From: an uncultured Gammaproteobacteria bacterium
GTDB taxonomy: Bacteria; Patescibacteriota; Patescibacteriia; UBA9570
NCBI GenBank assembly: GCA_964385285.1
Contig: CAYLOJ010000007.1
Coordinates: forward strand, 1 to 61,462
DNA: 61,462 nucleotides
Reading direction: 5' to 3'
Shown piece by piece: positions 3,926 through 39,865 of the stretch; position 1 is the stretch's first letter; every line of letters starts with the position of its first letter. The position numbers and the translations under genes are program-made. A model generated the notes under the pieces. That model did not search any database and was not told the DNA's origin. It saw only the letters and a program-made list of their open reading frames with translations.

Positions 3926-6478
3926 TTAGAAAAAGGAATCTGGAGCCGTGAGATCAGAACCACCGCCTAACTGATCTAACTTACCACGTTCAATAATTTC
4001 CGCTTCGACGATGGCGCGATCGCGGCCGTATTTGAGACGTGATAGTTGTTTCAACTGTTCAGCTAACGGCACATTGCCTGGTGGCGGCATGATCGTTTTC
4101 ATATTGAATGGCCGACAGGTGGTGTTATCAATCAAGAGTTTAATATTCGCCGTATATTTTTCGACGTTGATTACATCGTTTTCGTTAAAGACCGGCGCAA
4201 ATTCTTTGGCGATCATCTCGGCATCTTCCACGCCGATGCGGAACGCTACTTTGGTACCGACGTTACCAAACACAGCATCGCGTACTTGGGAATCATTATT
4301 CTTCACCAATTGTGAAACATACTGGTGAGCCAAGATCATATTCAAACGATATTTACGAGCCTCAGACAAGATGATCGCAATCGAATCGGTCGTATAGTTT
4401 TGGAACTCATCAATATAGCAGTAGAAATCTTTGCGTTGCTCCTTCGGCAAATTGGCACGTGACATCGCCGCCATCTGAATTTTCGAGACCATGATCAACC
4501 CTAACAAACTACTATTCACTTCTCCGATCTGCCCTTTCGACAAATTCACCAACAAAATTTTACGATTATCCATGATCTCGCGCACGTTGAAACCAGATTT
4601 ATTTTGACCAACGATATTGCGCATCATATCGTTGGTTAAGAAACGACCAATCTTGGAAATGACATACGACAACATGTCAGCGGCTTGTTGGCCGGCTTGC
4701 GACTGTTCGTATTCTTGTTCCCAGAAGTTTTTGACAATCAAGTTCTTCACATGTTTCAGTTTTTCTTTGCGGAACTTGGCATCAGTGAACATGCGTGGAA
4801 TTTCAATCAAACTCGCGCCGGCTTCTTTGTCGTCCATCATCGCCAACATCGCATTACGCATATAATGTTCAAACATTGGACCGATCATCTCCTGACCGAA
4901 CAACTTGTAGAAGATAGCGACCATTTCCTGCACAGCAAAATCTTTCTGCTCATCGGTATCGTATTCCAACATGTTCAACCCGACTGGGCGATCCACATCC
5001 CCTGGTTGAAAGACGACCACATCATCAGCACGTTCTTTCGGAATATGCTCTAAAACGTCTTGGACTAAATCACCATGCGGATCAATCACGCACACGCCCT
5101 CGCCATTTTCAATATCCTGGATTGCCAAGTTGGATAACATCACCGATTTACCTGAACCCGTCTGACCAATGACATACATATGACGCTGACGATCTGGTCG
5201 TTTAATCCGCACAGGCGTGACAATACCGCGGTATTCAACACTGCCTAAAATCACACCTTCTTTAGGCATATTAAAGGGCGGTGCGGCTTTTTTCGATAAC
5301 AACCAACGAATATTTGGGGTCTCGGTCGTTGGCAAAGGCATGTGATAGAGCGTGCAGATCTCCTTAGTATTTAAGACAAACGATTTGTGCTCATCAAATG
5401 TCCGGTAGATAAAATGTTCAATCTCCTTCTGATTGATACTAGGTTTGGAGCTCTTGAACTCATTGGCATACAACGTACCTGAATACTGCGCAAAGGCGCC
5501 AAGAATGGTGTGTGTTTTATATTCTGCAATTTCTTTGGTGGCGGCGGAAACGATAACACGAATGTTCACATCAAATCCAGGATTTCCCGCTTTCTCTTCA
5601 AAGCCCTTCACCATCTCTTCTTCCATCGGCGATAATTTATATTCACGCTCTGTGCGCAAGTCGATCCCCTGTTCACGTTTCGCATGATCTTTGAAGAAGA
5701 TATATTTCAAAGCAATCCACTCACGATAAAAAAAGTTACCAGCGACTTCCGCGTGAGCTTGTTCATATTTTTTACCCTGGTGCATCGTGGCGGCAATATG
5801 TGCTGGGACCCTTGCCCAATGTTTGCGAGATGGACGAATCACAAACTGCACGGCTGCTCCTTCATGTTTCTCGAATTTTGACAGCACGTTTGTCAATGCA
5901 CTCATCGGATCTACCTCCAACTTATTGTAGATCAAAATGGGAAACTCGTTGGCTTTTTTTAAGGTGACCCGTGATGCCACGACTACGCCGTTGGGTTCAA
6001 AGACATTGTAATCCTCTACTTCATCGATGACGGCTGCATCGTACTGGGCTTGAAACTGCTGTTCAAAATAGGTGCGCAAATTATGTGGTACGACGGCAAA
6101 ATAGGTAATCAATTGATCTTTATCCGCGACAATCTCAAAACTAAAATGATCGTTACGACCAAACCAAAACTCCTCCCACCGAGAACCATGCGGAATTTGA
6201 TGAATTGCAGTATAGAAAGCTTCCGCAATACTAATACGCTGCTCTTCCGATTGTTTACGATACGATGGATTATCGCCAGACTGCTTCTCTTGCATGTCCT
6301 CTTTGGGCACACGAATCATCAACACGGCTCGCTTCATGCTATCAGAACGATGCACTAACTTGCGCGTATAATTGCGTAACAACATGATGGTTAGATAAAC
6401 CACCAGCAAAGCTACCAGGATATACAAGATGAACGGAACGATAGGATAAAGCAGGAAAAAGTCCAAGATCTGATCCAT
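3926..6478 (-). CDS. Membrane-anchored HerA/VirD4/TraD-like P-loop ATPase
   Basis: N-terminal TM helix. Walker A GQTGSGKS, VIDPHGDL, Walker B-like YIDEFQNY, and ARKYRLNMILAHQ typical of DUF87 / TraD-TraG C-terminal ATPases. Confidence 0.65.
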   Translation of the reverse strand: MDQILDFFLLYPIVPFILYILVALLVVYLTIMLLRNYTRKLVHRSDSMKRAVLMIRVPKEDMQEKQSGDNPSYRKQSEEQRISIAEAFYTAIHQIPHGSRWEEFWFGRNDHFSFEIVADKDQLITYFAVVPHNLRTYFEQQFQAQYDAAVIDEVEDYNVFEPNGVVVASRVTLKKANEFPILIYNKLEVDPMSALTNVLSKFEKHEGAAVQFVIRPSRKHWARVPAHIAATMHQGKKYEQAHAEVAGNFFYREWIALKYIFFKDHAKREQGIDLRTEREYKLSPMEEEMVKGFEEKAGNPGFDVNIRVIVSAATKEIAEYKTHTILGAFAQYSGTLYANEFKSSKPSINQKEIEHFIYRTFDEHKSFVLNTKEICTLYHMPLPTTETPNIRWLLSKKAAPPFNMPKEGVILGSVEYRGIVTPVRIKRPDRQRHMYVIGQTGSGKSVMLSNLAIQDIENGEGVCVIDPHGDLVQDVLEHIPKERADDVVVFQPGDVDRPVGLNMLEYDTDEQKDFAVQEMVAIFYKLFGQEMIGPMFEHYMRNAMLAMMDDKEAGASLIEIPRMFTDAKFRKEKLKHVKNLIVKNFWEQEYEQSQAGQQAADMLSYVISKIGRFLTNDMMRNIVGQNKSGFNVREIMDNRKILLVNLSKGQIGEVNSSLLGLIMVSKIQMAAMSRANLPKEQRKDFYCYIDEFQNYTTDSIAIILSEARKYRLNMILAHQYVSQLVKNNDSQVRDAVFGNVGTKVAFRIGVEDAEMIAKEFAPVFNENDVINVEKYTANIKLLIDNTTCRPFNMKTIMPPPGNVPLAEQLKQLSRLKYGRDRAIVEAEIIERGKLDQLGGGSDLTAPDSFF

Positions 6479-11249: not shown

Positions 11250-11594
11250 CTACGGACAGAGCACGTCGGCGTAAAGGACTCCGCCCTTGGAGATGTCCTT
11301 TGAATTGATGATGTGCATCATCCGGCGCCCCTGGTAGGTCGTCCGAGCCGGCGCGATGCCACGGTTTTCGATCCACGCGAGCAAATCACCGCTGAAGTGC
11401 TCCATCACGCTGTCGGCGAAGGAGATGCGCGGGTAGATCGTGTAGCCGTTCGGCAACGCGATGGGATTGAACCCAGTACGTGGGTCACGCGTCCGAAGGT
11501 CACCCTCGTACGCGTCGGTCTCCTCGTACCAGGTGATGGTGGCGAACTTCTCCGCCAGGTAGACACCCACCTCGTCCAGTCGTCTCAATTGCAT
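11250..11594 (-). CDS. GC-rich cassette B: hypothetical 114-aa protein
   Basis: ORF track. High GC3. SD UAGGAG lies 7 nt upstream of the ATG. Confidence 0.7.
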   Translation of the reverse strand: MQLRRLDEVGVYLAEKFATITWYEETDAYEGDLRTRDPRTGFNPIALPNGYTIYPRISFADSVMEHFSGDLLAWIENRGIAPARTTYQGRRMMHIINSKDISKGGVLYADVLCP

Positions 11595-12096: not shown

Positions 12097-12402
12097 TCAG
12101 GTTGCGGGGTCTTCGAAGATCGTCATGATCTGCTTGCGGTTCCCGTCCAGCAGGGTGATGACGCGGCCGTCATTCACCTTGGTGGGGTGGGGCGTCAGGC
12201 CGATGGTGGCATGGACGAATCCAGCCAGCGTGTCGTGCCAGACCCGCTCCGACTCGATGACGAAGCGCCCAACCCGAACTGCCTTCGGGCCGAAGACGAC
12301 CTGGGTGGGACTACGTGACGTCACGAAGACCTTCGAGAAGTCGACCATGTTGAACGCCAGCGCCAGCGCCAGCTCGAGATCCTTCAGAGACAAAGTACGC
12401 AA
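12097..12402 (-). CDS. GC-rich cassette C: hypothetical 101-aa protein (TTG start)
   Basis: ORF track. High GC3. GGAG lies 7 nt upstream of the TTG. Confidence 0.6.
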   Translation of the reverse strand: MRTLSLKDLELALALAFNMVDFSKVFVTSRSPTQVVFGPKAVRVGRFVIESERVWHDTLAGFVHATIGLTPHPTKVNDGRVITLLDGNRKQIMTIFEDPAT

Positions 12403-12423
12403 AATAGCTCCGTGAGCCCCAGC

Positions 12424-12452
12424 AGGCTAATGGAGATTACTGTTTATGTCAA
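12424..12452 (-). promoter_or_regulatory. Sigma70-type promoter for cassette C
   Basis: TTGACA (12447-12452), 17 nt, TAGCCT (12424-12429), immediately after the stop of the upstream membrane-protein gene. Confidence 0.45.
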
Positions 12453-12460
12453 ACTAGACC

Positions 12461-13150
12461 CTATTCCCGATTGCGGCCGATCAAGATCATCGCCACAATG
12501 GGCGCAGCAATCCATCCAAAATTGGTCCACTCATTGGTGAACACATACTGTGTTAATGCGGAAAACTTATGAAGTACATTATCCGGCATGAAGGATAAAG
12601 TGACGGATACTAATAACCCAACATGCAACACACTAAACACCAAGGTTTGCCACCACTTCCCTTCTCCATTTGGAGCCAAGGCATTCAACACCGCTTGGCG
12701 TGACAATAAGAAAAATAAAATAATGAATACGGAGATAAAGGCAGTGATCTGTACAGTGTAACTATCGTTCACTTTGATGTTCAGCACAAACTCTGGCAAT
12801 GCCGCTACCACCGCCAACGCCATATAGATACTGACCATGATGGCGATGATACGATCCTTCCCTAAGGACAAACCATAGAGCAGAGCACCGACAACAAAGA
12901 AGCCCACTAAAAACAGATCCCATGATGGATTGCCCATGTTCAGGCTTTTAAGAGTTTGGTCGATATTCAACTGGCTAGTACTACTATTGGTATTACTCGC
13001 AGCTTCTTCAACTGCGGTAACGACTCCGGTTGATTCTGTGCTCGCCGTTACGGTACCAGAATCTGCATTCGTATTGGTATCCGAATTCGTATTACTATTC
13101 TCTGTATCCGAGACTACCGTTTTATTTTTTTGCTCAGTATTTTTTGGCAT
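12461..13150 (-). CDS. Multi-pass membrane protein with a low-complexity Thr/Ser/Asn N-terminus
   Basis: ORF track. Several hydrophobic helices. Confidence 0.65.
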   Translation of the reverse strand: MPKNTEQKNKTVVSDTENSNTNSDTNTNADSGTVTASTESTGVVTAVEEAASNTNSSTSQLNIDQTLKSLNMGNPSWDLFLVGFFVVGALLYGLSLGKDRIIAIMVSIYMALAVVAALPEFVLNIKVNDSYTVQITAFISVFIILFFLLSRQAVLNALAPNGEGKWWQTLVFSVLHVGLLVSVTLSFMPDNVLHKFSALTQYVFTNEWTNFGWIAAPIVAMILIGRNRE

Positions 13151-27602: not shown

Positions 27603-27642
27603 TTTCCATTTCTGAACAGTGTTCAGGATGCGTAACTTTGTC

Positions 27643-27676: not shown

Positions 27677-27868
27677 TGTTACTTTTTCATTCCCGTGTGT
27701 TTAAAAAGGTACGCACCTTCAAGCAACGACTCGAGATCAGCCCTCTAGCGGGTTTGGCCACATTCCCCATGGAAATGCGGCACTGCACGTGTAGTCGTGC
27801 CTGACAGCTGTCAGATTATTTTACGATTTTATTTAGTTTTAATGCGACAGGTCACCAGCCTGTTTTTT
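27677..27868 (+). ncRNA. Y-family structured leader/sRNA, copy Y1 (terminated ~75 nt before the FG-GAP gene)
   Basis: Homologous to Y2 and Y3 (GCACCUUCAAG, GGGUUUGG, UUCCCCAUGG blocks). Ends in ACAGG-UCACCAG-CCUGU plus U6. Confidence 0.5.
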
Positions 27869-33255: not shown

Positions 33256-33320
33256 GTAGACTACTGTCTTCAGAATTTGAACCCTATTGTGCAGGCGTTG
33301 CGGCAGTGGCAACAAGTTTT
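33256..33320 (-). repeat. R repeat copy R1 (resembles a tRNA 3' half)
   Basis: Minus strand AAAACUUGUUGCCACUGCCGCAACGCCUGCACAAUAGGGUUCAAAUUCUGAAGACAGUAGUCUAC, followed by the palindrome AAACTAGTTT and the promoter. Confidence 0.7.
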
Positions 33321-33365
33321 AACTTCTTTAAGCTTACCCTTTAGTACTTTTCGTTATATGAATAT

Positions 33366-33863
33366 TCAGTATGTTAGGGCTTCAACAAGGGCCTTGCAAA
33401 AACGCTCTTGCCGCAACACAACACCCTTAGTATTGTGCCATGAACCGTCTCCAGGAATATATAACACGTGTTGACCATGCGCATCCCGATAGATCAGCTT
33501 TACTGCAACAGCGCTGCCATACGCAGTGATGATATGTTGAACGCTAGCAGAGACCACATCTGATTTATTGATACTAATGTTATCCATCGGCTGAAGAGCT
33601 GTGAACGTATAAACGCCCTTCATACAGGTAATACGTATATACCAGGGTGCAATAATTTTACGTCTAGTCGCGTACACAAAAAAAATGCCTAGCACAAACA
33701 TAACACCAACCCCTAACACACTGAGGGGCTCATCGCTACTAACAGGAATTTCTCCCTGAGCCCACAGCCAAATAAAACTACCAAATAATAGACTCATGAT
33801 AACAGGAAAAAATAAAATAATGCCTAGCCGGTCACGAGTTGAATGTCTCCTTTCAAATTGCAT
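33366..33863 (-). CDS. Hypothetical membrane protein (2 N-terminal TM helices)
   Basis: ORF track. Host-like GC. The ATG lies 9 nt after R2 with no promoter in between. Confidence 0.6.
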   Translation of the reverse strand: MQFERRHSTRDRLGIILFFPVIMSLLFGSFIWLWAQGEIPVSSDEPLSVLGVGVMFVLGIFFVYATRRKIIAPWYIRITCMKGVYTFTALQPMDNISINKSDVVSASVQHIITAYGSAVAVKLIYRDAHGQHVLYIPGDGSWHNTKGVVLRQERFCKALVEALTY

Positions 33864-33871
33864 ATAGTAAT

Positions 33872-33936
33872 GTAGATTCCTGTCTTCAGAATTTAAACCC
33901 TATTGTACAGGCATTGCGGCAGTGGCAGCAAGTTTT
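33872..33936 (-). repeat. R repeat copy R2
   Basis: About 85% identical to R1. Lies between hammerhead 1 and the 33863 ORF. Confidence 0.7.
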
Positions 33937-33950
33937 AGCCGGTTCAATTA

Positions 33951-34016
33951 TCCCCTTTCGTCCTTAATCTTGCGATCTAGACTCGTCAGTTTAGGCATTA
34001 CCTAAAGAGGGTGATG
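33951..34016 (-). ncRNA. Type III hammerhead ribozyme, copy 1
   Basis: Minus strand CCCUC^UUUAGG-UAAUG-CCUAAA-CUGACGA-GUCUAGAUC-GCAA-GAUUAAGGAC-GAAA-GGGG. All core nucleotides are present (CUGANGA, G10.1-C11.1, GAAA, A15.1-U16.1, C17). Stems I and II are loop-closed and stem III is open. Predicted cleavage between 34007 and 34006. Confidence 0.8.
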
Positions 34017-34101
34017 AGTGGGGCCTTGGGTTGCAGGAGACGTTGGAACGTTCGCCGCAACACACGTAGGTCCCACCCGCCCTCATACACCATCTGTCCT
34101 C
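34017..34101 (-). other. Conserved structured domain between the cassette-I stop and hammerhead 1
   Basis: Homologous to 36536-36610. Helix GUGGGACC/GGCCCCAC and inner ACGU-UCCA-ACGU hairpin. Confidence 0.5.
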
Positions 34102-34482
34102 TTACTGGCAGCTCACCTCCCAGCCACCGAACGGCTCAGCGGCTCCGATGATGAATGACGGTTCGGCCTCTGGTGCCTGCGGGCATTGCACCCGCCACTC
34201 GTCCGCGAGCGCCTTGGCCCGCTTGATACTGAGCGGCGGGTCCTGGAACGCCTCTTCACTCATCTGGGTGCCGAGTGAAGTGACATGACAGCGCTTGTCA
34301 CTGTGCTGCTTCCAGAACGCGCAGGCAGACCCCAGGTCGTACTTGACGGCCTTTCCATCAGGGCCGAGAGTCGACGAATTCTTCTGATAGAGTACGAATC
34401 CGCGGACTGCGTTATCGGCAGGCATAGCAGCCATGATGCTGAGAACGATGAGAAGAGTGAAGGCAGTCTTGAAAGTTCGCAT
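34102..34482 (-). CDS. GC-rich secreted 126-aa Cys-containing protein (cassette I)
   Basis: ORF track. N-terminal signal-like helix MRTFKTAFTLLIVLSIMAAMPA. Confidence 0.6.
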   Translation of the reverse strand: MRTFKTAFTLLIVLSIMAAMPADNAVRGFVLYQKNSSTLGPDGKAVKYDLGSACAFWKQHSDKRCHVTSLGTQMSEEAFQDPPLSIKRAKALADEWRVQCPQAPEAEPSFIIGAAEPFGGWEVSCQ

Positions 34483-34513
34483 GGGCGCCTTATCCAGGTG
34501 GTGAGAGATACCG

Positions 34514-34564
34514 TTCCACCTGCTTACAGCTGACTTCTAAAAAATCAGATCTAAGCAAGTGGAA
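34514..34564 (-). promoter_or_regulatory. Conserved 13-bp leader hairpin followed by CUCACCACCUGG, upstream of cassette I
   Basis: UUCCACUUGCUUA...UAAGCAGGUGGAA. Homologous to 37137-37186. Confidence 0.45.
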
Positions 34565-34591
34565 CGAGTAATGTATGAGGGTTGTAAAGAA

Positions 34592-34774
34592 CAAAAAACA
34601 GGCGGTTAGCCTGCGTTGTGGAATAGAGAATGAATGGTTGTTTGGCTCGTACGATTACCTCGTACAGTGTCACATTACCATAGGGAACGTGACCAAACCC
34701 ACTTCATAACTTTTCCATTCAGTTATGCTAGTAGTTACTTGAAGGTGCATGTTTTGAGGCATGTCCTCAAAAAC
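34592..34774 (-). ncRNA. Y-family structured leader/sRNA, copy Y2
   Basis: Promoter TTGACA (34804-34809), 17 nt, TATAGT (34781-34786). Four hairpins. Terminator CAGGC-UAACC-GCCUG plus U6 at about 34593-34613. Confidence 0.55.
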
Positions 34775-34817
34775 AGTGGCACTATACTCATGCATATGAG
34801 TTATGTCAAGAATTGCT

Positions 34818-34883
34818 GTAAACCACTGTATTCAGAATTTGAACCCCATTGTACAGGCGTTGCGGCAGTGGCAACAGGTTTTA
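34818..34883 (-). repeat. R repeat copy R3
   Basis: Lies directly upstream of the Y2 promoter. A 12-nt R-end fragment (AGAGUCUACAUA) also overlaps the stop codon at about 34929-34940. Confidence 0.7.
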
Positions 34884-34939
34884 CGGCCTGTATTGGCTTG
34901 ATTTAATAGCCACAGCATTTTTGGAGAATTATGTAGACT

Positions 34940-36250
34940 CTATGACTGCATTGGATACTTAGCCATGAACGCTTCTAACTCGGCAGATAATTTAGCTTGT
35001 TCGGCCTGTAAACGTGTGTGTTCAGCCTGAGCTTGATCTAGCTCGTCGCCATATTGGTTTAAGTGGGGATCAATTGCTTTTTGAAAATCTGCATGTCTAG
35101 CCGCTTGATCGTGTGCCTGGTACTGGCCACGTGGCAAGTTATGTTGCCAAATGTTTTTCTCTACCCGCGATACTTGAAACCAACCAATGGCAGCACCTGC
35201 CGCTGCCCCTAACGCAGCCATTGGAATGTTTGGTTCACCAGTCTGCCCCACGTTGTACATGACACCCGCCATGCCCATAATGCCAGCAGTACCTAAAGTG
35301 ATATGCGCTACCTTTAACATTTCCCAAATTTGATGAGCAGTTACCCGTAATTGAATAGAGGCATCTCTTGCATCATAGGCATGTTGGCGAGCTGCTAAAT
35401 ACTGCTCAGCATCTTCTGCATCTACCGCTAATTCAAAATATTGTGCCAGCAATTCATTCAAGCGTTGGCCAGCCGTACGTATCTGTTCAATTAAGTTGGT
35501 CACTGCTGGTTCGGGTTCGTTGACTGCAGGTTGGCGCGGATCTTTGAATTTCACGTTACCATCACTCCCCAACCGATCAATTTCTAACTCTATCTCATGA
35601 ATTTCTTCTCGCAAAGATCGTAACTCTTCAGTCAGAGTAGTAATTTGTAGATTGCGATTTTCTGGAGTACCAGCGCGTTGTTCCGCCCGGCGTTGTTTGG
35701 CAGCTCGATAGCGTTCTAATTCTGGGTACTGAGCAAACCAACGCTCAGAATAATCGTGAGATTCCTCCATACGCGACAAACCAAATTCCACCGCTGAACC
35801 AGCCATGGCCCCACCAGCTGTGGCCAACGCTGTCATGGCAGGATCCTTAGTGAGCATATACGCTCCAGCACCAACACCAGTGCCTATAATTGAACTAGAA
35901 GTAACGTAACGTGTTACTGCCCAAGCCAGTTTAGCTGCTTTAGCTTTTATCTCGGCAAAACGTTGAGAATTTTGATTAAGTTGTTCAAGTGCTTGAATAC
36001 TGCGTTCTGCTCCTTCCTGAGCTTGCAACAATTTATAGTAGTGACTTAAGGCACTATCAAATTTTCGACCTGATTCTGCTAAATAGTCCAAATAGGCCTT
36101 TAAGGTTTCTGGAGTGGCTTCACCTTGGAATTCTAAAAGATTTTTAGCATGCTCTTCAGGTTGATGGTTAGGCAACGCAACCTTTGGTTCCAAATGGACT
36201 ATCGGTTCCGGTGGACGACGAAAGGGTTGACGAGTACGTTCAATACTCAT
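34940..36250 (-). CDS. Hypothetical coiled-coil protein with two glycine-zipper membrane segments
   Basis: ORF track. GTGVGAGAY...GGAMAGSAV and GTAGIMGMAGV...LGAAAGAAIGW. Confidence 0.6.
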   Translation of the reverse strand: MSIERTRQPFRRPPEPIVHLEPKVALPNHQPEEHAKNLLEFQGEATPETLKAYLDYLAESGRKFDSALSHYYKLLQAQEGAERSIQALEQLNQNSQRFAEIKAKAAKLAWAVTRYVTSSSIIGTGVGAGAYMLTKDPAMTALATAGGAMAGSAVEFGLSRMEESHDYSERWFAQYPELERYRAAKQRRAEQRAGTPENRNLQITTLTEELRSLREEIHEIELEIDRLGSDGNVKFKDPRQPAVNEPEPAVTNLIEQIRTAGQRLNELLAQYFELAVDAEDAEQYLAARQHAYDARDASIQLRVTAHQIWEMLKVAHITLGTAGIMGMAGVMYNVGQTGEPNIPMAALGAAAGAAIGWFQVSRVEKNIWQHNLPRGQYQAHDQAARHADFQKAIDPHLNQYGDELDQAQAEHTRLQAEQAKLSAELEAFMAKYPMQS

Positions 36251-36251
36251 A

Positions 36252-36416
36252 TTAGGATTGTGTGGATCTTAGTTGAGCTTGGATATCATCAGAAAAAGAT
36301 TCGATGTCCTGGTTCAGTTGTTGAAAGGCTAATTTCACTTCTGCAGGAGAAGCTTTACCCTGAGCGATTTTCTCGCACAAGTCATCAAAGTTTAATGGAG
36401 TATTATCATTCGCCAT
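36252..36416 (-). CDS. 54-aa hypothetical protein, translationally coupled to the 36250 ORF
   Basis: Hand-translated MANDNTPLNFDDLCEKIAQGKASPAEVKLAFQQLNQDIESFSDDIQAQLRSTQS. Its TAA stop lies 1 nt before the next ATG. Confidence 0.45.
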   Translation of the reverse strand: MANDNTPLNFDDLCEKIAQGKASPAEVKLAFQQLNQDIESFSDDIQAQLRSTQS

Positions 36417-36431
36417 AAATAGATATAGACA

Positions 36432-36459
36432 ATTTTAGCAGATTTTAGGAAAAAATCAA
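36432..36459 (-). promoter_or_regulatory. Candidate promoter for the 36416 operon
   Basis: TTGATT, 16 nt, TAAAAT, immediately downstream of hammerhead 2. Confidence 0.4.
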
Positions 36460-36470
36460 GCGCAAATGAT

Positions 36471-36535
36471 TCCCTTTCGTCCTTGATCTTGCGATCTAGA
36501 CTCGTCAGTTTAGGCATTACCTAAAGAGGGTGATT
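36471..36535 (-). ncRNA. Type III hammerhead ribozyme, copy 2
   Basis: Same core as copy 1. The single stem II difference (GAUUAAGGAC to GAUCAAGGAC) converts a G-U pair to G-C. Predicted cleavage between 36526 and 36525. Confidence 0.8.
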
Positions 36536-36610
36536 GAGTGAAACCTTGGGTTGAAGCTGACGTTGGAACGTCACCAGCAACACACTTAGGTTCCACTCGC
36601 CCCTCATACA
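36536..36610 (-). other. Conserved structured domain between the cassette-J stop and hammerhead 2
   Basis: GUGGAACC/GGUUUCAC replaces GUGGGACC/GGCCCCAC of copy 1 (compensatory). GCUG/CAGC replaces GCGG/CCUGC. Confidence 0.5.
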
Positions 36611-37108
36611 CTAGTACCGCATGCACACCTGCGCCGTCAGCTCTTCACAGTTCGCAACGTGTGAATCTGGAGTACTCGCGAGACACTGTTCGTACAGGTA
36701 TCGAGTAGCGACGGGGGTGCACAGAGTGGTTGGATCGAACTGTTCGTAGTCCGACCACGGAGCCATGATCGGCCACTCATCCCACTTCGTTGGCATTCGA
36801 CCCAACTGCAGCGCGCGCCAGTTGCAGTTCGACTCGAGTGCGAGAAGTTTGATACTGGCACCCTGGGTATTCATCAGAATGACCTGCATCTGCTCCTCGT
36901 CACACAAAGGCGGCGGGTGCAATGTAGCGTCCATTTCCGTGAGCATGTACCGGAAGAGATCGGACATCGCCCGCTCTCTATCAAGTGACAACTCGAGCTT
37001 GTGAATCTTCTTGGCCTGCTCGATGAGCGCGTCCTGCTTTCGATGAGCGCACCCGCTGCTCAGGAGGATGATGAGGAGGACGACGATGGTCTTCAGCTGT
37101 GTGTACAT
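36611..37108 (-). CDS. GC-rich lipoprotein, 165 aa (cassette J)
   Basis: Lipobox LLSSGC. Seven further Cys. SD GGGAGAG. Confidence 0.65.
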   Translation of the reverse strand: MYTQLKTIVVLLIILLSSGCAHRKQDALIEQAKKIHKLELSLDRERAMSDLFRYMLTEMDATLHPPPLCDEEQMQVILMNTQGASIKLLALESNCNWRALQLGRMPTKWDEWPIMAPWSDYEQFDPTTLCTPVATRYLYEQCLASTPDSHVANCEELTAQVCMRY

Positions 37109-37136
37109 TTGTCTCTCCCAGGTGGTGAGATTAGGG

Positions 37137-37186
37137 TTCCACCTGCTTACAACTGACTTCGTAAAATCAGCTCAAAGCAGATGGAA
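37137..37186 (-). promoter_or_regulatory. Conserved leader hairpin followed by CUCACCACCUGG, upstream of cassette J
   Basis: Homolog of 34514-34564. The downstream UCUCACC...GGGAGAGA could sequester the SD. Confidence 0.45.
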
Positions 37187-37212
37187 CAGATAGTGTATGA
37201 AGGTTGTAAAGA

Positions 37213-37401
37213 ACAAAACAGCAGGTGTTTCACCTGCTTTCACATTACGATTGATTGTACTCATCTAGACCTCTTTACAGGCAACGCGATTAACTCGCGC
37301 GGTACTACGCCACCATAGGGGGTGTAGTCGAACCCACTTGAACCTGTGTTCAAGTTGTTTCTAGAAAGTGCATGTTTTTACAGATGTGTATTCTGTAAAA
37401 A
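37213..37401 (-). ncRNA. Y-family structured leader/sRNA, copy Y3
   Basis: Promoter TTGACA (37431-37436), 17 nt, TACCAT (37408-37413). Terminator GCAGGUG-AAA-CACCUGC plus U-run at about 37214-37237. Confidence 0.55.
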
Positions 37402-37460
37402 CGCGCCATGGTACACCAAAATACATGTTTTGTCAAGACCTAATAGACACTGCTTTGTAT

Positions 37461-37525
37461 GTAGACTCTGTCTTCAGAATTTGAACCCTATGGTACAGAC
37501 GTTGAGGAAATGGCGGCAGGTATTA
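37461..37525 (-). repeat. R repeat copy R4 (most diverged)
   Basis: ...ACGUCUGUACCAUAGGGUUCAAAUUCUGAAGACAGAGUCUAC, upstream of the Y3 promoter. Confidence 0.6.
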
Positions 37526-37573
37526 GTATTCACTAGCTCTATTCACCTCTATTGAGATGAACACAGTATGCGT

Positions 37574-37602
37574 GAGAAGGGGGTAGCTCTTCTCGTCCTC
37601 CA
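37574..37602 (-). other. Cassette-L 3' module: UGGAGGA plus hairpin
   Basis: GGAGGA at 37596-37602. GAGAAG/CUUCUC stem at 37574-37594. Preceded by the CGCACAU/AUGUGCG hairpin. Confidence 0.45.
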
Positions 37603-37660
37603 ATGTGATTTGCGCACATCTACCCCTGGATCATGGAATGATCAATGTGCGACTAGATCT

Positions 37661-38203
37661 CTACTTCCGCCGGCGGAATCCAAACAGCGGGAAGAGCAGC
37701 GTTGCTGCGAAAGTAATACCTTGATTACATCCTCCGCACTCGACAGAATCCTTGTCGTCTCCCGTATCGCTCTCCCCAGAATCGATCTCGACCGACTGGG
37801 TGTAGAGGTTCACGCTGGTGCCGTCGACGAAAACCGCGAGGGTCGAATCCCGGTTTCCCTCCAACCAGGCCTCGTAGAGGCTCTCGGGGATGTACGCCGT
37901 GAACTCGTCACCGGTCAGGTCATAGTCGAAGTCCTCCCGCCCGTTGGGGAAGAGATCCGACTCACTGGCCCACGTGGACAGCCATTCGTAGTTGCAGACC
38001 TCATCGCCGTCGTCGAGCAGGAAGTTGTACACGACCTGGATTGAGTCGTAGCCGCTTGGGCTCTCGACGCCCGGGGTGAACGAGTTGGCATCGACCACGA
38101 TGGCGGTCGCCGACTCGCAGAATGCGTCGTTTGAGCCGTCGGCTCCCATGGTGTAGTCAGCGTCATCGGCGAGTGCTGCCGACAGGAACAATGAAAACAA
38201 CAT
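37661..38203 (-). CDS. GC-rich secreted acidic protein with a MYXO-CTERM/GlyGly-CTERM-like sorting tail (cassette L)
   Basis: Start moved to the ATG at 38203 (MLFSLFLSAALA signal peptide, SD UAGGAGAG). C-terminus ECGGCNQG-ITFAATLLFPLFGF-RRRK. Confidence 0.6.
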   Translation of the reverse strand: MLFSLFLSAALADDADYTMGADGSNDAFCESATAIVVDANSFTPGVESPSGYDSIQVVYNFLLDDGDEVCNYEWLSTWASESDLFPNGREDFDYDLTGDEFTAYIPESLYEAWLEGNRDSTLAVFVDGTSVNLYTQSVEIDSGESDTGDDKDSVECGGCNQGITFAATLLFPLFGFRRRK

Positions 38204-38316
38204 CACTACTCTCCTACTACTTCTGCTGGAACATTCCAGCAGCCAAGCAACTTTTCGAGTTACGAGGACTAAATAGACTATCGCGTAATCTATTCCATCC
38301 CAGTAATTCGACAAAC

Positions 38317-38460
38317 AAAAAAGACCCTTACTGGGTCATTTCCTAAAAACCTCTTCATCAGAGGGAACAACGACCGGATGGTCTTTTGTTTTGAGTGTTG
38401 TTAACGGAGTGCAGCCTAGCTCCGTCTCGTTACGTAACGAGATTAAATTTTCAATGAGGC
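38317..38460 (-). ncRNA. W-family structured leader/sRNA, copy W2
   Basis: Hairpins UCUCGUUAC/GUAACGAGA, CGGAG/CUCCG, AACAAC...GACC-AUCC-GGUC...GUUGUU and CCUCU-GAUGA-AGAGG. Terminator GACCC-AGUAA-GGGUC plus U6. Confidence 0.5.
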
Positions 38461-38464
38461 CAAC

Positions 38465-38493
38465 AGGTTAAGGCAAAATGTGATTTTTGTCAA
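38465..38493 (-). promoter_or_regulatory. Sigma70-type promoter of W2
   Basis: TTGACA (38488-38493), 17 nt, TAACCT (38465-38470). Confidence 0.45.
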
Positions 38494-38513
38494 TAGGTAA
38501 CGTAAACTAGTTT

Positions 38514-38578
38514 GTAGACTACTGTATTCAGAATTTGAACCCTATTGTGCAGGCATTAAGGCAGTGGCAGCAAGTTTT
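38514..38578 (-). repeat. R repeat copy R5
   Basis: It occupies exactly the position that the tRNA-Glu 3' fragment occupies in the W1 unit. Confidence 0.7.
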
Positions 38579-38602
38579 ACAGTTCGTAAACTGAATATAA
38601 AA

Positions 38603-38630
38603 ACAAAAAACACCAGCGAATGACTGATGT
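38603..38630 (-). terminator. Rho-independent terminator of cassette K
   Basis: CAUCAG-UCAUUCG-CUGGUG plus U6. Confidence 0.6.
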
Positions 38631-38673
38631 TTTTTGGGGTGGGTATCTTCTTTCTGCTCGATATGAATCGGCA

Positions 38674-38716
38674 GTGGTGAGATACCAGCGACCCTTACGG
38701 ATCTAACCTATCCTCC
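38674..38716 (-). other. Cassette-K 3' module: CGGAGGAUA, GUAA-tetraloop hairpin, CACCAC
   Basis: GGAGGA at 38711-38716. GAUCC-GUAA-GGGUC at 38690-38703. CACCAC at 38674-38679. Confidence 0.45.
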
Positions 38717-38732
38717 GAATCCTAACATGAAG

Positions 38733-39266
38733 CTATGGGCAGGTATGTCCATCATCGACGTTACCGTCGCAGTCATCATCGATGCCGTCGCAGTTCTCGT
38801 CGGGGGCACCAGGGTGAATTGCTGCGTTGGTGTCATCGCAGTCACTGGAACCAAGCGCGTAGCCCTCGGGGGGCTCGGCCGCACAAAAGTAGTCCCCTGT
38901 CCCTGCTCCGTAACCATCTTCATCCAGGTCCGGATAATAGATGGTCTGGCCGGTCAGCGTTCCCGGCCCCTCGTCTTCGTCGATGGCCCCGTCACAATCG
39001 TTGTCGATGCCATCGCAGGCCTCGGAATCTTCGGGACTCCTTCCACCATAGACGTCATCACGATCATCATCGCAGTCATCGTCATTGGTGACGTATCCTG
39101 CCGGGACGGGGTCACCACCACAGGCCTCCCAGATTTCCCGGGGATCACCACGACCATCGCCATCGAGATCGGCATACCAGGTTTTTGTAGGGTCGCCGCA
39201 ACCCGTATCGTTTTTTACAACGTTGACTGTGCATGCAAGAAGACCGAGGAGTAGAACGAGCAACAT
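38733..39266 (-). CDS. GC-rich lipoprotein with MopE-type putative metal-binding Cys/Asp repeats (cassette K)
   Basis: Lipobox LGLLAC. Two repeats of the form DCDD...PGAPE.CDGIDNDCDG preceded by DLDGDG(Y/R)G. Confidence 0.75.
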   Translation of the reverse strand: MLLVLLLGLLACTVNVVKNDTGCGDPTKTWYADLDGDGRGDPREIWEACGGDPVPAGYVTNDDDCDDDRDDVYGGRSPEDSEACDGIDNDCDGAIDEDEGPGTLTGQTIYYPDLDEDGYGAGTGDYFCAAEPPEGYALGSSDCDDTNAAIHPGAPDENCDGIDDDCDGNVDDGHTCP

Positions 39267-39437: not shown

Positions 39438-39581
39438 AAAAAAGACCCTTACTGGGTCATTTCCTAAAAACCTCTTCATCAGAGGGAACAACGACCGGAT
39501 GGTCTTTTGTTTTGAGTGTTGTTAACGGAGTGCAGCCTAGCTCCGTCTCGTTACGTAACGAGATTAAATTTTCAATGAGGC
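39438..39581 (-). ncRNA. W-family structured leader/sRNA, copy W1
   Basis: Part of a ~203-bp direct repeat (39438-39640 versus 38317-38519) with only 3 mismatches, all in the promoter spacer. Confidence 0.5.
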
Positions 39582-39585
39582 CAAC

Positions 39586-39614
39586 AGGTTAATCCAAAAT
39601 GTGGTTTTTGTCAA
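39586..39614 (-). promoter_or_regulatory. Sigma70-type promoter of W1
   Basis: TTGACA (39609-39614), 17 nt, TAACCT. Confidence 0.45.
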
Positions 39615-39634
39615 TAGGTAACGTAAACTAGTTT

Positions 39635-39654
39635 GTAGCCCCACAGGGAATCGA
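39635..39654 (-). repeat. 20-nt duplicate of the tRNA-Glu 3' end (att-like direct repeat)
   Basis: gtagccccacagggaatcga is identical to 39793-39812. It cannot fold as a tRNA on its own. Confidence 0.8.
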
Positions 39655-39750
39655 CCACTCCGCCCAATTCAGAAATTGGGCTCCGGGCCGGGGCTTGTGC
39701 TCGTCTGTCACTGACAGCCGTGCTCGCCCGTTCGATTCCTCCACGAACCA
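39655..39750 (-). other. Orphan GC-rich fragment without an ORF, carrying a GGAGGAA + hairpin module
   Basis: Minus strand GUGGAGGAAUCGAACGGGCGAGCACGGCUGUCA-G-UGACAGACGAGCAC... It lies between the two copies of the tRNA 3' end. Confidence 0.4.
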
Positions 39751-39751
39751 C

Positions 39752-39792
39752 AAAAAAATAAAAACCCCACGGATGTGGGATTTTTATTTTTC
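39752..39792. terminator. Bidirectional terminator after tRNA-Glu
   Basis: CCCAC-GGAU-GUGGG hairpin (39766-39779) flanked by A- and T-runs. Confidence 0.7.
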
Positions 39793-39793
39793 G

Positions 39794-39865
39794 TAGCCCC
39801 ACAGGGAATCGAACCCTGGTTTGAGCGCTGAGAACGCTCCGTCCTAACCGTTAGACGATGAGGCC
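39794..39865 (-). tRNA. tRNA-Glu(CUC)
   Basis: 72-nt cloverleaf folded by hand: GGCCUCA/UGGGGCU acceptor, GUCU/GGAC D stem, GAGCG-UUCUCAG-CGCUC anticodon arm, 4-nt variable loop, CAGGG-UUCGAUU-CCCUG T arm. CCA is not encoded. Confidence 0.85.

Follow-up and report, generated by a model that had tools for sequence, protein, structure and literature searches.

Why should a sequence resembling the 3' half of a tRNA recur at the boundaries of small gene modules in a bacterial chromosome? The question is raised by a 61,462-nt stretch of DNA (contig CAYLOJ010000007.1), referred to here as the window, in which a repeat designated R, 65-66 nt long, occurs in five copies with pairwise identities of 82-92%, all within one 6.5-kb array near a tRNA-Glu gene. 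A first-pass annotation made from the sequence had reported five copies in a single orientation, which is borne out (33256-33321 to 38514-38579), and had considered R a decayed att site left by serial integration, a binding site upstream of promoters, or a tRNA-like RNA-processing signal. The first of these proposals was essentially right and can be sharpened. The R copies are very probably attR scars, in which the P arm of an attP site has been left behind by elements that encode a large serine recombinase (LSR), target the 3' end of tRNA-Glu in Patescibacteria and were inserted serially. What had been overlooked is that R is protein-coding on the opposite strand. The copies and their immediate junctions are as follows.

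33256-33321, minus strand: R1, putative attR-type scar; its plus strand encodes VDYCLQNLNPIVQALRQWQQVL, and its P-type half-site consists of TTCAAATTC, 15 nt and AC
Minus strand, directly after R1: R1 flank, AAACTAGTTTATCTTAGCCATTGACA, homologous to the start of the W repeat described below
33872-33937, minus strand: R2, putative attR-type scar, VDSCLQNLNPIVQALRQWQQVL; open reading frame (ORF) I starts 8 nt past the junction, and no promoter follows
34818-34883, minus strand: R3, putative attR-type scar, VNHCIQNLNPIVQALRQWQQVL, with the end ..GGTTTAC; then AGCAATTCTTGACA, resembling the flank after copy a of the related contig L001
37461-37525, minus strand: R4, the most diverged copy; a 1-nt deletion leaves 14 nt rather than 15 from the TTCAAATTC motif to the crossover
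38514-38579, minus strand: R5, putative attR-type scar, VDYCIQNLNPIVQALRQWQQVL, abutting W1; occupied counterpart of the junction between the tRNA fragment and W2
34930-34941, minus strand: 12-nt copy of the R4 end plus junction, AGAGTCTAC followed by ATA, at the stop codon of ORF K

R as the end of a recombinase gene

Read on the plus strand, R encodes VDYC[LI]QNLNPIVQALRQWQQVL, an open frame of 22 codons (V-D-Y-C-[LI]-Q-N-L-N-P-[IM]-V-Q-A-L-R-Q-W-Q-Q-V-L). Among R1, R2, R3 and R5, the pairwise codon differences (synonymous:non-synonymous) are 4:0, 3:1, 4:1, 5:1, 4:1 and 7:0, and the variable sites fall on codon positions 1/2/3 in the numbers 4/1/10, a pattern that is unique to one frame. Eight of the nine substitution events in these four copies are synonymous, as compared with 2.8 expected (P ~2e-4), and with R4 added the figure is 10 of 15 (P ~3.5e-4). 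Such mainly synonymous divergence indicates that the copies diverged inside translated, selected LSR genes rather than having been duplicated in place, from which we infer five separate deposition events. In-frame stops lie two codons upstream of R1 and of R5, so the R copies are now gene fragments; in R4, the single-nucleotide deletion falls in the 15-nt spacer and therefore breaks both the reading frame and the half-site spacing.

The distribution of R outside the window is narrow. Genome and metagenome scans recovered it only in L001, L003/L005 and L004, apart from a chance 22-25-nt match in L002, and a scan of one genome per species with a conserved 21-mer of R returned R-like sequence in L001 (two copies) and L003. 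The concatenated R peptides, used as a query, gave a single match, P0001. No R copies were found in seven close-relative loci or in three more loci, and the viral contig collections that were scanned yielded 0 matches. Within the window, an nhmmer profile of R detected no sixth copy (next match E = 0.2); the first-pass annotation had allowed that R might be scattered across the genome, and over these 61 kb all copies instead lie in the one array.

The gene to which R belongs is identified by the matching DNA. The R-like sequence in L003 is the 3' end of a 536-aa ORF with a serine recombinase N-terminal motif. The full contig of L003, L005, has 11,164 nt and is circular by a 137-nt terminal overlap, and its LSR is intact, with the end ..LVDHCIQNLNPIIQDIQKW... 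A second circular contig, L017 (10,823 nt, exact 30-nt terminal overlap), likewise carries an intact LSR, P0004, with the end ..IVDYCIENLHPLVLDIKKW.. and the attP arm GGGGTGTAAATTCTCAATACAGTAGTCTAC. On both circles, R-like sequence makes up the last 22-30 codons of the LSR. When the 536-aa LSR of L003/L005 was compared with the window by tblastn, its last 22-26 residues matched all five R copies and nothing else matched.

The 120 best homologues of the 536-aa protein are large serine recombinases (PF00239 + PF07508 + PF13408), and their source names, where present, refer to a Patescibacteria-group or unclassified bacterium. A total of 106 of the 120 terminate in antisense-tRNA peptides, such as ..LVAPTGFEPVLPH and ..VVPRGIEPLLPG (..GIEP..). 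Such tails result when the T-arm and acceptor end of a tRNA are translated antisense, which indicates that the homologues in question are integrated copies. R-type tails are retained in a few of the 120, and in other assemblies short ORFs with R-type tails have been called across attR junctions.

Both states of one element can be compared, as L004 contains the L005 element in integrated form, with L005 circularly permuted relative to it. In L004, tRNA-Glu(UUC) occupies nt 46-120; from nt 115 onward the sequence is colinear with L005, beginning exactly at the R end, and from the same position the LSR body runs antisense. The element terminates with R at nt 11479, beyond which lies unrelated DNA. 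The junctions of the L004/L005 pair read:

attL: ..GGGGCTAC joined to CAAAGAGG
attP: ..GTGGTCTAC joined to CAAAGAGG
attR: ..GTGGTCTAC joined to CAGAAAAT

The core common to attL, attP and attR is CTACCA, that is, the discriminator base and CCA of the tRNA. As far as these breakpoints define it, attP is shown in these elements to sit within the LSR gene itself, ~22-30 codons before the stop, and R is shown in the same related DNA to play an apparent double role as the C-terminal coding segment of the LSR (on the plus strand of the window) and as a P-type half-site. Integration would accordingly leave the LSR body beside the tRNA at attL, where it would gain a tail encoded by the antisense strand of the tRNA, and R would move to the other end of the element, where it would join what had been the tRNA flank, as attR. 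A sigma-70-like promoter, TTGACT-17-TATATT, was also observed just outside the LSR stop codon (L005 ~6240-6262; L004 ~11370-11400); it is directed through R to the crossover and, after integration, would read out into the chromosomal flank.

The geometry of the half-sites accounts for the tRNA likeness. The similarity between R and the tRNA-Glu end seen in the first-pass annotation is real (GGGTTCAAATTC...CTAC versus GGGTTCGATTCC...CTAC), and the two differ in spacing: between TTCAAATTC and the AC of ..CTAC, R has 15 nt, and between TTCGATTCC and AC, tRNA-Glu has 10 nt. The motif, in general form TTCRAWTYC, stands at these same distances from AC, 15 versus 10 nt, in the genuine attP/attB pair of L005/L004. 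In serine integrases, the motif for the zinc-ribbon domain lies at positions 16-24 of the attP half-site and 11-19 of the attB half-site, and thus 5 bp nearer the centre in attB (PMC3783163). The difference in spacing between R and tRNA-Glu evidently matches this published shift. R would therefore resemble a tRNA 3' half because one recombinase must recognise both R, as the P arm, and the tRNA end, as the B arm. Judged from sequence, R displays the testable features of an LSR attachment-site arm, namely contiguity with an LSR, the breakpoints of attP x attB recombination, the 5-bp shift and, for R5 and R1, an attR flank.

The tRNA-Glu locus in the window and its relatives

The attR flanks become apparent when the array is read from the tRNA gene outward, for which the following features of the window are needed.

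39793-39865, minus strand: tRNA-Glu(CUC) gene; its 3' end, ..GGGTTCGATTCCCTGTGGGGCTAC, is the putative B-type half-site, and the LSR of sister strains is inserted exactly there
39655-39792, minus strand: native spacer between the tRNA gene and the 3' fragment, with a terminator hairpin and a GC-rich stretch
39635-39654, minus strand: tRNA-Glu 3' fragment, TCGATTCCCTGTGGGGCTAC, an exact 20-nt copy of the end of the gene; with W2 it makes an unoccupied attB-like site
39438-39638, minus strand: W2, native flank (B' arm) with a TTGACA promoter, a ~150-nt structured leader and a terminator; it precedes ORF O (38733-39266)
38317-38517, minus strand: W1, 98.5% identical to W2 and joined to R5; it precedes ORF N (37661-38209)
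33366-39266, minus strand: cargo modules with ORF O (MopE motif), N, M, L+K, J and I

On the minus strand, the tRNA-proximal part thus runs from tRNA-Glu through the native spacer to the fragment, which is joined to W2 and ORF O, and then to R5, joined to W1 and ORF N. There follow R4 with leader Y2, ORF M, trailer Z2 and ORFs L and K; R3 with leader Y1, ORF J and trailer Z1; R2 with ORF I; and R1 with a promoter and ORF H. All cargo ORFs are tRNA-sense and read toward the next R, as does the cargo of the circular contigs L005 and L017. The two W units had been noticed before as carrying R5 in one case and the tRNA-Glu 3' fragment in the other beyond a shared ...GTAG, and this comparison holds, with the repeat now measured at 201 nt. 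The junction of R5 and W1 joins the native flank to a P arm and hence qualifies as attR, and the junction of the fragment and W2 is, by its structure, evidently the matching empty attB. The flank of R1 shares 28 of 34 nt with the beginning of W and appears to be a third copy of the same B' arm.

A further trace of R may exist in the 12-mer AGAGTCTACATA, which is present twice, at the R4 junction and at 34930-34941. The occurrence of an R-end fragment near the stop codon of ORF K had been correctly reported, and it may represent a truncated sixth junction; its significance is marginal, because many sub-words of R are possible.

Related assemblies show the same locus in other states. The window GAPDH, which adjoins the array and for which an exact-protein look-up returned no record, is 85-93% identical to proteins of Patescibacteria/Kerfeldbacteria-type assemblies, by which the window genome is evidently Kerfeldbacteria-like, and tRNA-Glu(CUC) lies just after gap in all relatives. 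L007/L008 carry a 517-aa LSR with the end ..LVAPQGIEPWFER, overlapping the end of tRNA-Glu(CUC), and in L006 the identity is 99.4% as far as the last tRNA base, past which the sequence diverges and that LSR is absent; the tRNA-Glu site appears to be active in sister strains. Assemblies with identical GAPDH thus differ downstream of tRNA-Glu, having the 517-aa LSR element in L007/L008 versus DUF1428, MarR and MFS genes in L006, which marks the locus as a strain-level hot spot.

The spacer and the 20-nt fragment are kept in L006 and L010, partly in L009, and are absent from L011 (spans of the tRNA gene, fragment or spacer: window 39635-39812; L006 11298-11484; L010 11146-11321; L011 4233-4252). 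The spacer is ~140 nt long and has a DNA identity of 88-91%, as against ~80% for the neighbouring gap gene. Lying between 20-nt direct repeats, it looks like what an older insertion left behind, possibly one made by another kind of integrase.

L001 (CAZSXL010000013.1), which is labelled uncultured Gammaproteobacteria, encodes a RecQ that is 73% identical in amino acid sequence to that of the Patescibacteria contig L014, and its flank after R matches L014 beside tRNA-Glu; L014 in turn carries the Kerfeldbacteria-type gap-tRNA-Glu locus. These matches make L001 a relative of the window organism, and its bin label is probably wrong. In L014 itself, a 78-aa GIY-YIG ORF (12367-12640) lies between tRNA-Glu and a flank homologous to that after L001 copy a. 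The end of this insert, ..TTAGTCTAC, matches the last 8 nt of R (TAGTCTAC) and may reflect a minimal or decayed insertion at the same site.

Several features of the modules deserve description in their own right. The W unit resembles a self-contained arrangement of a promoter, a ~150-nt structured RNA and an intrinsic terminator (GACCCAGTAAGGGTC and a T-run), for which a small RNA gene or an attenuator leader are candidate roles. Small ORFs of 56-65% GC stand out in the 47% GC genome (32355-33011, 34102-34482, 36611-37108, 37661-38209, 38733-39266 and 25231-27600). Signal-peptide-like N-termini are seen in most of them, a MopE motif and a DUF4384 domain in one each, and AT-rich conserved non-coding modules lie ahead of them. 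An ORF of 59% GC behind a Y-like leader follows tRNA-Glu in L009 (11572-12057), with the same architecture as in the window.

The Y leader is a conserved 5' region of ~300 nt, found in the window (34494-34810, 37118-37440 and ~27692-27805) and in relatives (L009 11347-11576, L006 18050-18162, L011 9783-9864). Within it lie a TTGACA promoter, the block GGGTTTGGYCACGTTCCCTATGGTAATGTG, two hairpins, one of them terminator-like with a T-run, and, immediately ahead of the start codon, TCTCACCACC; it has no match in Rfam. The Z trailer, conserved downstream of the high-GC ORFs J and M, contains a candidate hammerhead ribozyme of type III (minus strand, 33946-34022 and 36465-36541; L011 ~5160-5225). 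Its sequence, ..CCCUC^UUUAGG-UAAUG-CCUAAA-CUGACGAG-(stem II, GCAA loop)-CGAAA-GGG.., includes all core nucleotides, and the minimum free energy fold is a three-way junction; Hammerhead_3 is the best Rfam match, at only 16 bits (E 0.73). The L011 candidate shows a compensatory change in stem I, from UUUAGG/CCUAAA to UUGAGG/CCUCAA, together with the canonical CUGAUGAG. The rest of the window is made up of chromosomal housekeeping genes (dnaX, cysS, dus, dnaJ/K, grpE, hrcA, gap, ilvE and leuBCD).

Assembly of the array and rival explanations

Several observations weigh against interpreting the array as a series of attR scars. The window contains no LSR body, intact or decayed, according to tblastn with two LSRs, and no recombinase was found among its ORFs scanned with Pfam. 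Canonical LSR chemistry, which is limited to attP x attB, would not by itself stack attR sites that lack LSR bodies. Of the five flanks, those of R1 and R5 alone are demonstrably sequences that abut the tRNA fragment elsewhere; R2 directly precedes an ORF start without a native-type promoter. LSR-less arrays of R were seen only in the window and L001, and the databases yielded no LSR whose tail is exactly of the window type.

The stacking of LSR-less modules can be modelled as accretion, a route that is built from canonical reactions only and in which our confidence is moderate to low. An LSR element would integrate at the tRNA fragment; excision via a more distal attR would then take the intervening segment of flank and gene along; and after re-integration, excision via the element's own attR would leave behind this segment, consisting of the B' flank, the gene or genes and the older R, and restore attB. 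Repeated in this way, the process would let modules accumulate beside the tRNA. Routes via attP x attR, attP x attL or homologous deletion between R copies account for the LSR-less structure only if further assumptions are made. At present the R copies most likely persist as inert scars, and they could be usable as attR if a cognate LSR and a directionality factor were supplied.

A more dynamic alternative is an integron-like cassette platform that is still active. On it, an LSR acting in trans, whose gene would lie on an element or at another genomic location, would insert and excise small LSR-less cassettes composed of flank, gene and R; R would serve as the cassette site and the tRNA-Glu fragment as the primary one. 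The small modules (0.6-2.6 kb, with one or two genes each) all face the same way and all terminate in R; an intact attB-like site lies at the tRNA-proximal end, the same B' arm is present in three copies, and L001 contains a single-gene module between two R copies. However, the window lacks an LSR, R4 is defective in spacing and frame, and known LSRs do not recombine attR-type sites with attB (PMC3783163). Neither cassette circles nor shared cassettes were found, and exact-protein look-ups of the cargo (ORF O and ORF K) returned no record. Such a platform is rather unlikely.

R could also be regarded as a set of displaced 3' ends of a host protein-coding gene that integrative elements use as target and replace, in the manner of icd and e14/phage 21 in E. 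coli. The coding nature of R, its purifying selection and the tandem arrangement of its copies in one orientation would fit such a model, but in circular elements the homologous peptide forms the C-terminus of the recombinase itself, and it is on this ground that the model is rejected. In addition, the leftmost R is not preceded by a gene body, and the stops upstream of R1 and R5 interrupt the frame. A host-gene origin is accordingly highly improbable.

A regulatory role, in which the sigma-70-like promoters behind R would use it, for example, as an upstream activating or transcription-factor site, corresponds to the binding site suggested in the first-pass annotation. Perfect TTGACA -35 boxes indeed lie 9-24 nt past R1, R3, R4 and R5. 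R2, however, has no promoter, and the same promoters stand behind the tRNA fragment without R in W2 of the window and in L009 and L010. In relatives, TTGACAAAAACC promoters follow the tRNA fragment directly, like the W promoter, which indicates that the promoter behind most R copies belongs to the native flank and not to R. The substitutions in R are codon-like rather than site-like, and in intact elements R is intragenic, so that this suggestion finds no support; there is very little chance that it is correct. A degenerate piece of R proposed at 27608-27626, ahead of a Y leader, comes down to a gapped match of ~12 nt in the opposite orientation, with no nhmmer match even at E <= 10.

Least tenable of all, and almost certainly wrong, is the view that R is a structured, tRNA-like RNA or that it punctuates transcripts as a signal for RNase P/Z processing. 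This view draws on the similarity of R to the T-arm and acceptor end of tRNA-Glu and on the location of R between transcription units, but it has the folding and search results against it and a similarity that requires a 5-nt offset, whereby T-arm pairing is impossible and the LSR half-site geometry is fitted instead. Scans of the window for tRNA and tmRNA with ARAGORN, as had been advised, and for Rfam families recovered only the true tRNA-Glu, with nothing reported at R even at E <= 1. Folding of every R copy on both strands gave z values of -1.2 to +0.6 relative to dinucleotide shuffles, and the consensus fold is weak (-5.4 kcal/mol) and carries no meaningful covariation. The partial covariation that had been described for a 5-bp helix dissolves on inspection, as no pair is altered on both sides and the covariation score is 0. 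The tRNA resemblance therefore stands as a likeness of sequence and not as an RNA feature.

Two repeat classes were likewise rejected. R has no inverted repeats or hairpin that would identify it as a miniature inverted-repeat transposable element (MITE) or repetitive extragenic palindromic (REP) sequence, a possibility raised at the outset; its copies are clustered, five in 6.5 kb and none elsewhere in the 61 kb, and this identity is also disfavoured by the lack of R in the seven close-relative loci and by the codon-like substitutions. Nor is R an integron attC site or comparable palindrome, given that it has no end-to-end complementarity and that the DNA folds of both strands are no better than those of shuffled sequences.

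Position among known integration systems

The interpretation of R as the P arm of an LSR element places the array in a known category, that of integration scars, of which the variant with attP in the recombinase's own gene is unusual. Its closest frame of reference is provided by LSR systems such as the Listeria A118/LI integrase, Bxb1 and phiC31, which share the architecture of Resolvase, Recombinase and Zn-ribbon domains, a short identity core, an attB motif 5 bp nearer the centre than in attP (PMC3783163), and attL and attR as products. In contrast to these systems, attP here falls within the sequence that encodes the recombinase itself, insertion takes place at the very 3' end of a tRNA gene, and integration swaps the last 22-30 residues for a peptide encoded by the antisense strand of the tRNA. 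No description of a tRNA-targeting LSR that combines an attP in its own gene with such a tail swap was found in the searched literature, which is not proof of absence.

Two systems with attP inside a gene invite comparison. The SSV1-type, or 'suicidal', archaeal tyrosine integrases also have attP in the integrase gene and a tRNA target, and their gene is partitioned upon integration (PMC8371274); a 2021 review describes them as exclusively archaeal (PMC8371274). They are, however, tyrosine recombinases whose gene is split into inactive parts, whereas the bacterial serine recombinase considered here loses only a short tail and keeps all catalytic and DNA-binding domains. The location of attP in its own gene is thus shared with the SSV1-type class, but as a bacterial serine recombinase (PF00239, PF07508, PF13408) the enzyme is an analogue only and not a member. 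In the integration-dependent immunity of mycobacteriophage BPs, attP likewise lies in a coding gene, and the C-termini of the free and integrated forms differ, making the gene product a sensor of integration state (PMC4557955); there, the gene encodes a repressor and the integrase is a tyrosine recombinase, whereas here the gene is that of the recombinase itself. The LSR family falls outside both classes because its enzyme is bacterial, belongs to the serine recombinases and has no more than its tail exchanged.

The array as a whole has parallels of its own. The cis-mobilizable elements (CIMEs) related to ICESt1 and ICESt3 of Streptococcus thermophilus are decayed, integrase-less modules separated by att sites at one target (PMC5704250), and their accretion proceeds by site-specific integration beside resident remnants and by composite excision (PMC5704250). 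They depend on tyrosine integrases, and their attL and attR keep a usable core, while the modules here measure only 0.6-2.6 kb; since the site pairs of LSRs are stricter, the route of stacking must differ from that of CIMEs. With integron arrays (attI + attC, IntI), the window shares small, mostly single-gene units in one direction, a conserved end site of 60-70 bp and anchorage at a primary site. Unlike attC, R is not an imperfect palindrome, has no fold and originates from the gene of a serine recombinase; IntI is absent, and many modules bring their own promoter.

There may be a large family of tRNA-targeting LSRs in Patescibacteria with attP in their own gene, in which the tail swap perhaps acts as an integration-state switch and alternative attR sites perhaps build integron-like stacks of LSR-less cassettes with promoters beside tRNA-Glu, the window array being one; this is a tentative proposal, possible rather than probable. 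The scars also bring to light >100 recombinases that take their C-termini from the antisense strand of a tRNA gene, as well as a free-form tail under purifying selection, and raise the question of whether the tail swap controls the directionality or stability of serine integrases, an enzyme class widely used in genome engineering. A second question is whether the small, streamlined genomes of the Candidate Phyla Radiation (CPR) gain genes for secreted proteins at a tRNA hot spot by a cassette-like mechanism. For annotation, the interpretation of R given here accounts for 'tRNA-like' intergenic repeats and for the odd ..GIEP.. C-termini of recombinases. Among the systems compared, LSRs that carry attP in their own gene are best viewed as the bacterial serine-recombinase counterpart of the archaeal 'self-splitting' integrases.

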